A stretch of DNA of 64,000 bases from an archaeon (GTDB lineage Archaea; SpSt-1190; DYHY01), in contig JBBIPP010000010.1 of the NCBI GenBank assembly GCA_037442745.1, positions 49 to 64,048 of the forward strand, read 5' to 3'. A program made the position numbers and the translations under genes. Below the pieces are notes generated by a model. That model saw nothing but the letters and a program-made list of their open reading frames with translations, did no database searches and was not told the DNA's origin. Each line of letters opens with the position of its first letter. Positions within the stretch are counted from its first letter, which is position 1. Shown piece by piece: positions 46,175 through 51,144 of the stretch.

Positions 46175-46759
46175 TTCCTTGGATATCCGGAATTGGGAGC
46201 AGTCCTGAGCGTTTTCCCCCTTTCGGAAGATTATTCGGAGAACCGGACAGCTGCCACGACATTCTTCTCGCCTGAGTAAGACGTCGAGAGAGCCTCCATT
46301 ATTCCGACAATTACTAGCCAGCCCTTTGTAAGAATGCCCTTTCTTTTGCCGAGACCTCGAGCCCGTCCTCTTCCCTGTAGAAATCGGGGAAATTGTCGAG
46401 CTTCTTTTTCAGGTGGGAGAATCTTATTCCTTTCAGTTCGGCGAGCGTAATGAAACTGGGCGAATCGAACAGCCCGCTTACCCCCTAGAAAACCTCCCGG
46501 ACATACTCGCTTGCTTCCTCAAGAATACCCCTCACTCCCGCGACAGGGGAAAAGCCGGCATAGTTCCTGACTCCGAAGAAGAGCCAGAACAGGTTATATT
46601 GCCTCCCATCGTTCCCGAGATAATCTATTCCGTATCTTTCAACCTGTAGATTTCAAGTGAAGGATGTTAAGAATTAGGCTGTTTTAACATAGGAATTTAG
46701 CGAATTCGAATTTTTGGGGGATTGAGAGAGACAGGCAACCAAGAAAATTCCGACAACCA

Positions 46760-46816
46760 AGTGAGCAATTTGGGAAACTGAAGTGCAACGAGGTTTCCGC
46801 ACAAGCCCCGTTAAGT
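46760..46816 (-). other. attC-like half site (distal)
   Basis: Minus strand ACTTAAC (RYYYAAC) followed by ggggcttgtgcggaaac...gtttcccaaattgc arm; partner arm missing. Confidence 0.45.
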
Positions 46817-47089
46817 GACCCGAACGGAACGAAGTTGAGTGAGAATGCAATGTGGTCGAGGAGAAGCGACGAAGAAGTTTTGTTTTTGAGAATATATAGT
46901 TTCGAACGAAGTGAGCGTAAAATTAAAAGCCTCTATCGTTTAGGTGAATTAAGTTCAGCAGAGTCTCCAATTCCACACATACCAATATCGATTATTGCAA
47001 GAAGTAAACCAAAATCCTTATTAAATTCTGCTTTGTAAGGCAAGTCTCCCAATCGGCCTAAATATCTTCCAGAAAACGCATCGGATTTT

Positions 47090-47185
47090 GATTTTTCCAA
47101 TTGATATGCCAAGTTTGCCAACTTTTGGAGAAGCCAAAAACTTGGAAAAATCGCAGGGGTTTCCCCCATTAATCGCTGTTAGAAG
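47090..47185 (-). other. attC-like truncated hairpin downstream of sua5
   Basis: Minus strand TTCTAAC-agcgattaatgggg followed by nested inverted repeats gatttttccaa...ttggaaaaatc and ccaagttt...aaacttgg. Confidence 0.5.
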
Positions 47186-47353
47186 TCCTGAACGAAGCGA
47201 AAGCCAGCAGGGCGCGGCAAAATTTCCGGAAGAAATTTTGAGTTTAGAATTCGGCGGTGGCGGGACGCCACGATTTTTATAAAAAAGAGTGGTTGCTTTG
47301 GATGATATCTGCCGAAGGCACCATATGTCCGAAGAATGGGGCAGGGGATTTTT

Positions 47354-48280
47354 TCAATGTTTATACATTTTTCCAGCTTTCTTCAATCTATTCATTATTG
47401 CAACTCCCAAACCTTTTTCTTGAATTGATTTTATTATTATAATGTCAAACCCCTTTTTGTCACATTCTCTAAAATCCCTGAATAAATTGCTCGCCATATT
47501 GATTTCATTCGGATAATCCAAAACTCTTATCTTTTTATAAAAGTATTTTCTGAGAACCTCCCCAAGTTCTTTGTTATTTCTTATGATAATAACTTTTGCA
47601 TTAGGCGAATAATGCCTATATTTCATCCCGGGAGACATCGGCCTTTTTGATTTTATATTGTATCTAACATTTCCTATAACTTGCTCTAATTGTTCTTTTG
47701 TAATCTTACCTGGCCTTAAAATTTGAGGAATTTTTTGAGTTAAATTCAGAACTGTCGATTCTATTCCAATTTTACATTTTCGAGCTTTAATAATTCCCGC
47801 TATTTTACCATTAAAATCTTCATAAACGTGCTCAAAACAAGTCCCAGAGGGTTTTCCAGAAATATTTGCTGAGGGAGCTGCAATAGGACAATCGGAGTTT
47901 TTTATCAATTCCAATGAAATCTTATTTTTTGGCATTCTTATTGCAACCGTATTTAATTCAGCAGTCACATTTTTTGGAACAATTTTTTTCTTTCTCAAAA
48001 TAATGGTTAACGGACCGGGCCAGAATTTTTTAACTATTTTTTTGGCCAAAGGGGTTAAATAAGCTATTTTTTCAACCTGTTTTATGCCGCTAACATGAAT
48101 TATTAAAGGATTATCAGAGGGTCGTCCTTTTACAGAAAAAATTTTATTAACTGCCTTAGGATTTAATGCATTTGCTCCTAATCCATAAACAGTTTCGGTT
48201 GGAAAAGCGACTAATTTCCCTTCTCTGATTAGCTCCCCAGCTTCTTTTAATTGTCTTGAATTAAATATTTTCGTTTTCAT
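47354..48280 (-). CDS. sua5: Threonylcarbamoyl-AMP synthase Sua5/TsaC2
   Basis: FPTETVYGLGA, KGRP.DNPLI.H, WPGPLT, APSANISG.PS, SPGMKYRHY.P, AIMNRL.KA. Confidence 0.96.
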   Translation of the reverse strand: MKTKIFNSRQLKEAGELIREGKLVAFPTETVYGLGANALNPKAVNKIFSVKGRPSDNPLIIHVSGIKQVEKIAYLTPLAKKIVKKFWPGPLTIILRKKKIVPKNVTAELNTVAIRMPKNKISLELIKNSDCPIAAPSANISGKPSGTCFEHVYEDFNGKIAGIIKARKCKIGIESTVLNLTQKIPQILRPGKITKEQLEQVIGNVRYNIKSKRPMSPGMKYRHYSPNAKVIIIRNNKELGEVLRKYFYKKIRVLDYPNEINMASNLFRDFRECDKKGFDIIIIKSIQEKGLGVAIMNRLKKAGKMYKH

Positions 48281-48357
48281 ATTTACTAATCTCTTTCGCA
48301 ACAGATAAAAAATCGGTTAAGATAATTGCAGGATTTATCCCTTCTAATCTCAGCCAA

Positions 48358-48618
48358 TCAAAAATGTTCTCTGCCATGCCAGCTAAGATAAACTGCTCTG
48401 CATCCGGCATTTCTACCAATAACTTTATCAGAAGGGCGGTCTCCTATTACCAACAAGGTAAGCAAATTAATACAATACCTCGAAACAATTTTTCCCATGT
48501 TCTTTATACTTGGTTTTTTGCATTCGCAGTTTTCAATAATTCCCAAATCTTCCGATTTATGAACACAACAATCTTCAATCATTTTTCCATCTCCACCCAA
48601 GAATATTGCCCTTTTCAT
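48358..48618 (-). pseudogene. GmhB/HisB-like HAD phosphatase remnant with internal deletion
   Basis: RAIFLGGDG (degenerate FLDRDG), CECKKP, IGDR.SD...G.NAGC; middle of the domain missing. Confidence 0.7.
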
Positions 48619-48848
48619 TTCAAACTCTTTTAAAATTTACCAACTTTTTCGCAGAAATAAACTTATTTATAAATCTAATTACTTTTTCCGATAAAAATTA
48701 TCCCAAAATCTTTGATTAGCACACGCCAGTTTTCGTTAAGAAAAATCTTTGGGTGTAGCGAAGCGAAACAGCTTAACAAAGGTTAGATCTGTTTGCGAAG
48801 CAAACCAAGTTTTCGTTTTTTTCGTTTCGTAGCGAGTGGGCAAATTGC

Positions 48849-48855
48849 ACCTAAC
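48849..48855 (-). other. Putative attI-like core site GTTAGGT
   Basis: GTTRRRY match located between the recombinase 5' end and divergently oriented cargo genes. Confidence 0.45.
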
Positions 48856-48959
48856 ATAGCTTAAACGCAACATTATTACGCTTAATTCTTGATTTCAATG
48901 CAAAATACGAAATTTTATGAATAATGTTCGTTTTCTTTTTCTTACGATAGTTAATTGAT

Positions 48960-49715
48960 TGTTGGCTCAAACATAAGCACTAATTGTTCAAGAATGTAAG
49001 CTCGAGGGCTATTCTAAAAAGACTACGGATTCGTATTTATTTCACATAAATAAATACATTCTGTCCGGCAAACCAACTCTGGACTTTCCTCTCAAGCTTA
49101 TGAATAATGAATGCTTCGATGAAACCTTAAGAGACGCAGGATTTGCAATAAAATTTTACTTATACTCTAAGTAAAGATAGTTCACAAATTCAGAATTCGC
49201 TTGACAATCTTCCAAACGTGAAACGCGAGAAAAAGTTGCCAGTCATTTTGTCAAAAGAAGAAATCGGAAAACTTATATGGGTCACAAAAAATATCAATCA
49301 TTGTTTAATTATGCAAACCGGTTATTCGGCAGGACTTCAAGTGAAATTATTAACCTCCAGCGGCAAGACATTGACTTACAGAAACCTCACCAATCCGAAG
49401 AGAGCAAAAGGGAAAAATATAGAATAGCGATTCTTTCACAAAAAGTAAAAGACGGGCCACATAATTTATCTCAAGAAAAATCAAGACGTGTCTTTCAAAC
49501 TAATAGATGCGGGAAATATACTCAAAGAACCATACAAAAAATAATGGAAAACGCCACAAACCCTAAGACATTCTTTTGCTCCCAACCTGCCGGAAAATGG
49601 CGCCGATATTGTGTAAATAAGAGATTTGCTAGGAAATCCGGATATCAGTACAACTCTAATCTATACAAAGGTTTCAAACAAAGACCTCTCAAAAATAAAA
49701 AGTCCACTAGATCAA
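48960..49715 (+). pseudogene. Tyrosine recombinase / integron-integrase-like pseudogene
   Basis: GYSKKT..SY, KKLPVILSKEEI, YSAGL, SEIINL...DID, YTQRTIQKI, LLG..DISTT.IYT.VS...L.KIKSPLD spread over several frames. Confidence 0.85.
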
Positions 49716-49861
49716 TTTTTCTTTTTCTTAGGTATGTTCCAGTATGGGCTTTTGCATTTTGGGCAGATTCTTGGATCTTCTTTTACTTTTACTCTTGGTA
49801 TCCATTCGTGTTTGCATCGTTCACATCGAAATCCCGGAACTTTAACGATTATCTTAGCCAT
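49712..49861 (-). CDS. Small CxxC...CxxC zinc-ribbon protein (49 aa)
   Basis: GFRCERCKHEWIPR...PRICPKCKSPYWN; divergent from the transposase remnant. Confidence 0.75.
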   Translation of the reverse strand: MAKIIVKVPGFRCERCKHEWIPRVKVKEDPRICPKCKSPYWNIPKKKKN

Positions 49862-49998
49862 GCGAGTGAGAAAACAGCTCATCCACATAAAATTTCTCGT
49901 AAAAGCTATACTTCTATGCGTAATAAACGACAAGATTTGTATATAAGACGGCCTTTTTTGAGTTATGCCTGTATAAGTAGGTAATTTAAGGCATTTAC

Positions 49999-50874
49999 TA
50001 TGGAAAATCAATAAGAAAACTGCCGGACTGTCCTGTCTGCAAAAGCAAAAGTCAGAAAAGACAGCGCAAGAAAAAAGCTGCTTGAAAACAAGAAAGATGG
50101 TTTTGCAAAGCTTGTGGAAAGCGTTGGGTTAATTCTCCAATCATAAACATTAGGGAGATCCTAAAACAGCAGTTACTTTTATGGATTTGTACATGAAAGG
50201 CGTTAGCTATCGTTCAATTGCAGACAATTTAAAGCAAATTTACGGAATTGAAGTAAGTTACATCACAGTTATGAACTGGGTAAACACTTATTTTTCAAGA
50301 ATCGCTCAATTTGCCAAGTCCATGAAACCTCAAGCAAGAGATTGTTGGCTTGCGGACAAACAATTTATCAAAGGCAATCGGCAATGCGTTTTGAATGTCT
50401 TGGACAACAAAACAAGATTTCTTCTAGCAAGTAACGCAAGTAAAACAAAAACTTGCGATTATGCCAGAAGAACATTCAAGAGAGCAAAGAAAACTGCTGG
50501 CAAGAAAGCAAAGACGGTGATTGCTGACAGCTCATTCAACTATTCAAAAGCAGTAAAAAATGAATTTGCAAATTATCAAAATCCTAAACCACACAAGCGT
50601 TACGTTTAGGGCAAAAAATCAGGAAATAATAACAAAGTAGGGGTGTTTCCATGAAAAATTAAGGCAAAGAGACAAAGCGATGCGCGGATTCAAGGGAAAC
50701 CAAAAGCAATACACAGAGAACTTCCAAAAATACTACAACTTTGTAAGAAAGCATTCAAAGATTGGAATGACTCCGGCTCAAAAAGCAAAAATAGATCAAA
50801 AACCAGAATGGAAAGAACGCCTCATAAAAGCAATGCAAAGCCAAGTGCCTGAAGGACAAACAAGACTAGTGTAA
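49999..50874 (+). pseudogene. IS6-like DDE transposase pseudogene
   Basis: WFCKACGKR, G.S.R.I...L HTH, W.AD, D..TRFLLA, VIAD, YYNFVRKH...TPAQ.A; frameshifts and internal stops. Confidence 0.8.
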
Positions 50875-51144
50875 AACAGTGGACTCGTGCCAAGTCTATG
50901 AAGCAATTTACACTTGAAAATAGCTTGGACTTATATTTCTTTAAGATTAAACACTTGACTTTTCCAAAATTCCGATTATGTCCAATCCCCATTTCTGACT
51001 GTCTGTCTCACTGTCCGCCTTATTTTTTGCCAGCAGGTCTGCCTAATGGCTTCAATTTGGGCGGTTAGTCTCTCGGTTAGCTTCAATTTTTAGAATAATT
51101 TTTAGGTGTTCATTCTTCATTTCAGAGAATGTGTCTGAGACGGG

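Follow-up and report, generated by a model that had tools for sequence, protein, structure and literature searches.

A decayed integron-like platform with a short tyrosine recombinase in an archaeal genome

We analyzed a 64,000-nucleotide stretch of archaeal DNA (the window) and found in it a locus that, judged from the sequence, belongs in decayed form to a non-canonical integron-like class and is not a canonical integron. In the reading that we favor, with a probability of about 0.75, the locus is a broken, likely horizontally acquired platform with an Xer-sized recombinase that lacks the insertion of integron integrases, and its cassettes were inserted at a fixed site upstream of the recombinase gene, likely by way of folded single-stranded cassette ends. 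A recombinase pseudogene, an attI-like site, three decayed cassette-site arms and cargo lie together at 46650-49715. The original prediction, a decaying integron-like platform that might be a distinct class with a shorter Xer-like recombinase, is supported by the arrays of relatives and by the missing insertion, but the sites are not canonical attC sites. The platform at this locus is dead, and sua5 alone is still intact. The features are as follows.

46190..46645, minus: 3' part of a host gene (six-frame comparison and blastn; GC 0.51; whole in the same-genus genome G001)
46682..46706, plus: R'-type arm (AAC, 3-nt loop, 11-nt stem, AATT; rank 1 with a trimmed arm profile)
46764..46890, minus: cassette site B (conserved tail; R'' core GTT at 46810-46812 on plus; stem arm 46798-46808; half of the branched tip)
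46936..47097, minus: open fragment (open frame; no family match)
47123..47250, minus: cassette site A (conserved tail; R'' core GTT at 47178-47180 on plus; 11-nt stem arm 47166-47176; branched tip; partner arm lost)
47354..48280, minus: intact sua5 (TsaC and Sua5_C; Pfam and NCBIfam over cut-off; GC 32%)
48264..48618, minus: broken HAD-IIIA/GmhB-like phosphatase remnant, spread over two frames (E 1.5e-10 with TIGR01656, far below its cut-off)
48734..48803, minus: conserved non-coding cassette leader (87% over 70 nt to the leader of L329-1; 82% to L267)
48844..48871, no strand: attI-like site, dif-like 11-6-11 layout (18.9 bits with a profile from 45 relatives' attI sites)
48943..49712, plus: pseudogene of a tyrosine recombinase from a ~270-aa family that lacks the IntI insertion (tblastn, family scores, motif spacing)
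49712..49861, minus: small zinc-ribbon ORF (weak Pfam Zn-ribbon matches)
50000..50874, plus: IS6-family transposase remnant within low-GC DNA of the island (NF033587 E 3.3e-17, under cut-off)

Remnants in the window

The GC content across 46650-49715 is 35%, and the island is likely foreign DNA acquired horizontally. It abuts the missing 5' end of the host gene at 46190-46645. Six-frame comparison and blastn did not find its DNA in the equivalent gap of genomes G003 and G001, and there was no holder of it among 16 relatives in the phylum. The remnants are 72-88% identical to the corresponding parts of relatives' arrays, and four separate parts match their intact-array counterparts in the right order and orientation (E-values of 1e-7 to 1e-16). 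The counterpart of the zinc-ribbon frame lies directly downstream of the recombinase in relative L320 (78% over 140 nt). An Rfam search gave three chance matches only, all far under gathering scores, and a general repeat finder gave nothing informative.

The predicted plus-strand recombinase remnant ending in KSPLD is present at about 48943-49712. Compared to an intact 272-aa relative (P0003), 193 of 254 aligned codons (76%) are identical, and there are six frameshifts, two in-frame stops and 12 missing residues. This remnant is the PF00589 match in the window; the only other one in this genome is a 427-aa integrase. No IntI insertion had been visible in the remnant, and the motif spacing agrees: only 159 nt separate KGK and RHSF in the window; an intact relative has 62 aa there, and IntI3 has 106 aa. 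The PF13495 profile did not detect the remnant, and a viral scan with a 69-aa piece found no relative.

The GTTAGGT core described upstream of the recombinase was found on the minus strand at 48855-48849. The attI profile exceeded 9 bits at one place only in the 1.14-Mb genome, position 48844, and the crossover would fall between 48854 and 48855 (G^TT on the minus strand). The GCGAAGC motifs, previously described as mini-hairpins, occur at 48758 and 48795 (the latter had been placed at 48791), but they are parts of the cassette leader and not recombination sites.

The cargo reported on the opposite strand consists of the HAD/GmhB-like remnant (48618-48264) and the intact sua5 (48280-47354), both on the minus strand. 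This sua5 is a second copy, another tsaC-like gene being located on contig C15 of the genome. Its best relatives are at 55-75%, the named ones mostly from Woese-, Pace- and Micrarchaeota, and none of nine Sua5 relatives was near a complete cassette site. The further cargo fragment corresponds to the open frame at 46936-47097, which probably represents the 3' end of the gene in a second cassette, but profile and homologue searches identified no family or homologue for it.

The TTCTAAC (47184-47178) and ACTTAAC (46816-46810) sites, with both associated hairpin arms (at 47164 and 46793), were also confirmed. These two arms ranked 1 and 2 in the genome with an arm-plus-tail profile, and 1 and 3 of 76 matches with a shorter profile. 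Site A is similar to sequences in L351 (87.5% over 64 nt) and L329 (78% over 97 nt), and site B to two sites of L357 (78-79% over 95-108 nt). The long imperfect hairpins ascribed to the sites are not intact: site A is without a partner arm, site B pairs at 7 of 11 positions with the arm at 46682-46706, and both fold like shuffled sequences (z of -1.8/-1.3 for A and -0.2/+0.1 for B). From its sequence, the arm at 46682-46706 appears to form a hybrid or worn site with arm B; its stem is one change away from that of L319, L320 and L350. It is the weakest part of the locus, because the full left-arm profile missed it and a trimmed profile, made afterwards, found it. There was no complete cassette site in the window.

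The recombinase family and its cassette arrays

Intact relatives of the recombinase keep the R-K-H-R-H-Y motifs and are labeled mostly as Woesearchaeota. Their best-scoring model was archaeal XerA (NF040815), at 204-214 bits, yet this is under the cut-off of 220; TIGR02249 gave 183-195 bits, split into two stretches, against a cut-off of 265. The alignment of the family to 2A3V breaks at the IntI-specific insertion (I2 helix region). The best matches among solved structures were XerA structures, and an AlphaFold model (pLDDT 82.6) matched XerA and VchIntIA about equally, with no discrimination between them. The family is distributed patchily, in 63 of 401 draft genomes at E ≤ 1e-66 and in one of the 401 at 1e-75 (order-level searches around G061 and G064, same genome set), and several members are truncated or interrupted by stops. 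In a quick tree the family forms a clade separate from the XerA group, and genome G062 has one protein of each. The backbone does not resolve the order of IntI, XerA and the family, so we make no claim that the family is ancestral to IntI. A TIGR02249 search of the relatives' genomes gave no match anywhere, controls included, and hence is uninformative on canonical IntI.

There were arrays upstream of the recombinase in 21 of 56 relative loci, with 35 hairpin sites; these loci are kin, and the counts are not of independent events. No complete site was found in the remaining 35 loci, many of which are at a contig end. Among the 30 best relatives, the contig ends within 450 bases upstream in 12, compared to two downstream. 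Hairpins with a perfect 11-bp stem and a 3/1 or 4/1 loop numbered 25 in 130 kb upstream of relatives versus none in 87 kb downstream; none were found in the mirror geometry or in the 1.14-Mb host genome. Homologues of the window's arms do occur as complete AAC...GTT hairpin sites between unrelated genes, and homologues of the recombinase do head arrays, so the original prediction survives the refutation test set for it. The form RYYYAAC...GTTRRRY, which the original prediction had used for such sites, often does not describe them, as the cores often fall outside RYYYAAC.

In these sites the 11-bp stem is unbroken, a 1x3/4-base loop lies next to the cut, and the tip is branched. The lack of a bulge is partly built in because the hairpin detector demanded an unbroken stem; a pairing-free check, which recovered only 23 known sites, found no bulged partner. 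In the stem columns of 32 distinct sites, pairing is maintained while the type of pair changes. The bottom strand gave the more stable fold in 33 of 34 sites.

Cassette borders in relatives break exactly at G^TT. In 30 of 33 cassettes all four bases that follow match the cassette's own downstream R'' core, whereas 20,000 shuffles gave a mean of 3.1 and a maximum of 12; the two cores of one site match in only 5 of 33. This match between the start of a cassette and its own R'' core appears, from these sequences, to be the footprint of cassette integration. The attI-like site of relatives follows the same rule, and in 47 of 53 loci it lies ~65-115 bases ahead of the short recombinase. The symmetry of its arms in 45 relatives was 6.4/11 at a spacer of 6 versus 2.4-3.5 at other spacers, a preference partly built in by the pattern used for picking sites. 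The cargo is different and unrelated between cassettes. It is forward in 19 of 33 cassettes, reverse in eight and mixed in three, and three are without an ORF of 50 aa; five of the reverse or mixed cassettes have Pfam-supported reverse genes. Cassette-specific inverted repeats close the cargo in 24 of 32 cassettes. The first cassette in the window fails both the core rule (AGGTG versus AGAAG, 3/5) and the inverted-repeat test (4/12), which is compatible with decay or a lost site yet gives no support for the platform. No closing-repeat partner was found within the island for either window cassette.

Proposed mechanism and competing explanations

The platform is likely a second, simpler kind of integron, and we infer that it recombines single-stranded DNA. 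The attI site would act as a double-stranded, dif-like 11-6-11 site, and the bottom strand at each cassette end would fold to give an 11-bp stem, with two or three extra bases looped out beside the cut. The looped-out bases could replace the flipped-out ones gripped by the insertion in IntI. The two partners have spacers that differ both in length (6 versus 8-9) and in sequence, a mismatch that makes a classical second strand exchange unlikely; one strand exchange followed by resolution through replication, as in integrons, would be the likely path. In the excised circle, the inverted repeat that flanks the cargo and is specific to each cassette would form the closure of a second stem. The platform at this locus probably came from a Woesearchaeota-like donor, truncated the host gene and then decayed by deletion. 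A broader proposal, to which we give somewhat better than even odds, is that a second integron class is common in DPANN and mobile between archaeal phyla, and recombines folded single-stranded cassettes without I2 at a dif-like attI, with the cassette site completed only when the whole cassette folds, including its cargo-specific closing stem.

The recombinase could instead be the housekeeping XerA, the attI-like site the chromosomal dif, and the cassettes IMEX-like elements that hijack Xer as phage CTX does. The dif-like layout, the XerA model being the best scorer (although under its cut-off) and the XerA structural matches all fit this explanation, but it seems improbable given that the family is patchy, often broken and apart from XerA in the tree, that G062 has one protein of each kind, and that the recombinase here lies in a foreign island. 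About equally improbable is a real platform with double-stranded sites and ordinary two-exchange Xer chemistry, as in pdif modules, in which the hairpins have another role. Such chemistry would suit an enzyme lacking the part of IntI that prevents a second exchange (PMC7790495), and the R'' arm alone is weakly symmetric at a 6-bp spacer (4.7/11). However, the crossover falls at the R' arm, where the double-stranded spacer has 8-9 bp and is unlike that of attI, stem pairing survives changes on both sides, and one strand folds better in nearly every site.

It is very unlikely that a canonical IntI elsewhere acts on the arrays as ordinary attC clusters, the short recombinase being a bystander. 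Published archaeal integrons are indeed mostly attC clusters without an integrase (PMC9668308), but the attI-like site keeps its position before the short recombinase and obeys the core rule, the site geometry is unlike the canonical attC taken for comparison, and the 427-aa integrase is the only further PF00589 match in this genome, leaving no other candidate. The least probable explanation, which we consider largely refuted already, is that the window holds a random foreign scrap with chance motifs or REP-like hairpins. The poor folding of the window sites and the IS6 remnant next door speak for it, but the four ordered part matches and the genome-wide ranks of the arms oppose it.

Relation to known systems

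Like integrons with IntI, attI and attC, the relatives' loci have a divergent recombinase gene, an adjoining attI, tandem cassettes, crossover at an AAC/GTT triplet, cassette starts complementary to their own R'' core, and hairpin sites biased to the bottom strand. They differ in the absence of the IntI insertion (62 versus 106 aa between motifs), in a conserved leader and tail with a cassette-specific closing inverted repeat, and in cargo that faces either way, whereas canonical cassette genes are co-oriented and share a Pc promoter. A canonical attC has extrahelical bases and an unpaired central spacer; here there is a stem without a bulge, a 1x3/4 loop by the cut and a branched, conserved tip. 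The insertion is present in every archaeal IntI of Ghaly et al. 2022, whose pipeline requires it (PMC9668308). Archaeal XerA/dif (PDB 4A8E, 5HXY; NF040815) shares with the family its size, its fold, the lack of an insertion and a dif-like 11-6-11 target. It differs in that XerA acts at a single resolution site, whereas the family heads an array of unrelated genes, scores under the XerA cut-off, and is separate in the tree, patchy and often broken.

The Xer-exploiting CTX phage integrates as a folded single strand (PMC7790495), and in this it resembles the platform as we propose it from sequence. The "Integron-like" subgroup of simple tyrosine recombinases (Smyshlyaev et al. 2021, PMC8138268), compared here by description only, is a close known group; the accessible part of that paper treats the insertion as indispensable to integron function and does not connect these proteins with cassette arrays. 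We found no description of an insertion-less cassette class in the literature searched, mostly open texts without supplements; the supplement of PMC9668308 may list some of the sites.

The I2 insertion is held to have enabled integron integrases to act on single-stranded DNA, but direct proof is lacking because deletion of I2 kills IntI1 (PMC7790495). With a natural enzyme that has cassette arrays of its own but no insertion, this question can be tested directly. Standard tools require the insertion and therefore cannot report such platforms as complete integrons, so gene flow among DPANN archaea by this route would be overlooked. How cassettes form has been named as an open question (PMC8618304), and the fixed leader-tail frame with a cargo-specific closing repeat provides a sequence signature for it. 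If there is indeed a second class, it would be a living model of the transition from Xer to integrons, and its standard leader-tail frame would offer a way to study how cassettes arise. The locus described here adds evidence that the platform can pass from one archaeal lineage to another, with an intact gene remaining afterwards.

A recombinase family without the IntI insertion

The locus has the following features (window positions):

46764-46890, minus strand, cassette site B, decayed
47123-47250, minus strand, cassette site A, decayed
47354-48280, minus strand, sua5
48264-48618, minus strand, HAD remnant
48734-48803, leader-like segment
48844-48871, attI-like site
48943-49712, plus strand, recombinase remnant (193 of 254 codons identical to P0003, an intact 272-aa relative)

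Compared to P0003, the recombinase remnant has six frameshifts and two stops, and is missing 12 residues. Its relatives are a tight family of proteins of about 270 aa, and the few named members are mostly from Woesearchaeota. Four members were tested against existing models. Their scores were below both cut-offs: 204-214 bits against 220 for the archaeal XerA model, and 183-195 bits against 265 for the integron integrase model, which matched in two separate parts; the alignment with VchIntIA (2A3V) was interrupted at the same place. KGK and HxxRH are 62 aa apart in P0003 and 106 aa apart in IntI3; in the window, the distance is 159 nt. The IntI insertion (the I2 helix region) is absent from the family, and the failure of the original prediction to see it in the remnant is borne out by the motif spacing. 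A quick tree of 114 proteins placed IntI in one clade (support 100) and the window family in another (support 98), with XerA apart and the backbone unresolved.

In the available text of Ghaly et al. 2022 (PMC9668308), archaeal integrons have integrases with the insertion, and the detection pipeline requires it. According to the accessible part of Smyshlyaev et al. 2021 (PMC8138268), conservation of the insertion is incomplete in an integron-like subgroup. Neither DPANN nor Woesearchaeota is mentioned in the portion available of a review of archaeal tyrosine recombinases (PMC8371274). A literature search of article texts found no description of insertion-less cassette arrays.

At the loci of three close relatives (L326, L327, and L328; 81-86% by tblastn), the match begins only at residue 115-125, with unrelated sequence upstream, and the family gene seems often to be disrupted. 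Locus L003, in a genome of the host's class (G008, contig C31), has a tandem pair of related insertion-less recombinase genes.

Attachment sites and cassettes at intact loci

The family was present in 63 of 401 genomes (E ≤ 1e-66) from the phylum of a Woesearchaeota-labelled genome; this tally includes one unpublished genome that was left out of further analysis. We analyzed 56 non-redundant loci out of about 350: the 30 best matches of the 401-genome search, extended or added regions, three loci from another search, and two metagenome loci. An attI-like motif was found about 65-115 bases ahead of the gene in 47 of the 53 loci with a usable start. Its symmetry peaks as 11-6-11, like dif, a result that is partly built into the pattern used to pick the sites.

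Perfect 11-bp hairpins with a 3/1 or 4/1 loop beside AAC/GTT occurred 25 times in 130 kb upstream of the gene and not at all in 87 kb downstream, and there were none in the mirror geometry or in the host genome. When the rule was relaxed slightly, 35 sites of 74-209 nt were found, spread over 21 of the 56 loci; one of these sites (at L352) looked spurious and was excluded from profiles. A contig ended less than 450 bases from the gene on the upstream side in 12 of the 30 best matches and on the downstream side in two, and the upstream ends would fit a first cassette that varies within populations. Collapsed sites, which keep AAC, the loop, and GTT but have lost most of the stem and the tip, were seen about 2.7 kb upstream of the recombinase at L319 and 5.8 and 6.8 kb upstream at L353. 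They look like hairpin deletions, a likely route of array decay.

If circular cassettes are cut at G^TT, the bases after the cut must equal the cassette's own downstream R'' core. We found agreement at four of four bases in 30 of 33 cassettes, compared to a mean of 3.1 and never more than 12 in 20,000 trials with shuffled core pairings. The two cores of one site agreed in only 5 of 33. Cargo was varied (metallo-hydrolase, NUDIX, alkylation repair, methyltransferases, a MunI-like restriction pair, Schlafen, LemA, and others), with a Pfam match for 20 of 44 proteins. It could face either way: it was forward in 19 cassettes, reverse in eight, and mixed in three, and the other three had no ORF of 50 aa. 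Each cassette frame also has a cassette-specific inverted repeat that starts at a fixed offset and ends ahead of the conserved tail. At least 8 of its 12 bases were paired in 24 of 32 cassettes, compared to 1.6% of 992 cross pairs, and in all eight reverse cassettes. When five circle junctions were folded in silico, this closing repeat and the site came together in one structure. Geneless cassettes of 105-154 bases with a complete leader-tail frame were present at L323 and L344.

In canonical attC sites some bases are extrahelical, the central spacer is unpaired, and the tip varies (PMC5027507, available text). The extrahelical bases dock to the I2 helix, which also blocks the second exchange (PMC7790495, available text). 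In contrast, the stem here is unbroken, and in 32 distinct sites it stays paired while the type of pair changes. On its short side the loop has a single base (a T in 31 of the 32 sites), and the tip has conserved motifs. The site detector demanded an unbroken stem. In a check anchored on the tail only, 23 known sites were recovered, none of which was improved by a gap, and the 16 further matches had no bulged partner. The bottom strand gave the more stable fold in 33 of 34 sites. The R' arm has the same arms as attI (11-6-11, like dif) but a spacer of 8 or 9 bases.

The layout, the missing insertion, the one-sided arrays, and the crossover point can be read directly from these sequence comparisons. 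Covariation and strand bias indicate that the cassette end would fold as a single strand. Because the partner spacers differ in length and sequence, we infer that one strand exchange would be followed by replicative resolution. The class thus described appears integron-like in its working, and two defining tests of integron membership place it outside the canonical integrons. The arrays of the intact relatives and the core match in 30 of 33 cassettes support the earlier reading of the window as a decaying integron-like platform, possibly of a distinct class with a shorter Xer-like recombinase. More distant recombinase relatives (L027, L108, L109, L116, L117, and L122) share this type of site, with a 4/1 loop, and one is a Peregrinibacteria record, so the class extends to candidate-phyla bacteria.

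The relic in the window

The locus in the window is a relic, and interest lies in the class rather than in this locus. A profile of 45 attI sites had a single match above 9 bits genome-wide, at 48844, and the leader and sites A and B were 78-88% identical to parts of intact arrays. What had been noticed from sequence alone was mostly right: the attI site and an insertion-less remnant are present, but neither site A nor site B folds better than shuffles. The leader and site A both resemble AGGCG-core cassettes (at L329 and L351), so the simplest reading of 48854-47178 would be a single cassette with two genes, HAD and sua5, the ends of which have drifted. Against this, the cores agree at 3 of 5 positions and the closing repeat at 4 of 12. 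The R' arm of site A is gone. At site B, 7 of 11 positions pair with an arm at 46682; the two arms are similar to different stem families, suggesting that the site is a deletion hybrid.

The sua5 gene is intact among broken neighbors, and a further tsaC-like gene is present in the genome. No complete site was found within 1.5 kb of any of nine Sua5 relatives; in this sample, therefore, sua5 is not typical cassette cargo. Two public sequencing runs (X1 and X2) contain a second copy of sua5 and the site A tail (window 47169-48300) that is 90-95% alike. One loose end of this copy leads to an intact-looking site arm; the other, at 47278, leads to different sequence. Among the 35 sua5 differences listed, the window has G/C and the other copy A/T at 25, and the opposite holds at seven; the difference is silent in 20 of 33 codons. 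The window copy may thus have drifted toward host GC, and the community may contain a living relative of this cassette.

The window (contig C10) belongs to an archaeal host genome of 1.14 Mb with a GC content of about 49%. GC is 35% at 46650-49715 and 37% at 49716-51000, compared to 51% on both flanks. In a genome of the same family (G003), the protease and endonuclease IV genes that flank the island are only about 0.9 kb apart, and in one of the same genus (G001) the gap is occupied by a whole gene, the 3' part of which persists at window 46190-46645. Recombinase DNA was found in none of 16 other genomes of the phylum. From the GC content, protein relatives, and empty sites, the island was probably imported from a Woesearchaeota-like donor. 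Contigs of X1 and X2 (one study, one run possibly the source) cross both borders of the island and, among the pieces listed, have no differences from the window in the recombinase region; therefore, the island and frameshifts are not obviously assembly errors.

No XerA-like gene was found in the host genome (94.5% complete). Its only other PF00589 match is a 427-aa integrase, and therefore there is no obvious enzyme to act on the array in trans. Isolated high-scoring matches to cassette-site arms at about 91185 on contig C2 and about 44712 on contig C6 of the host may be chance or other relics. A small zinc-ribbon ORF (window 49712-49861) is convergent to the recombinase both in the window and at L320, where it is 78% alike, and possibly belongs to the mobile unit.
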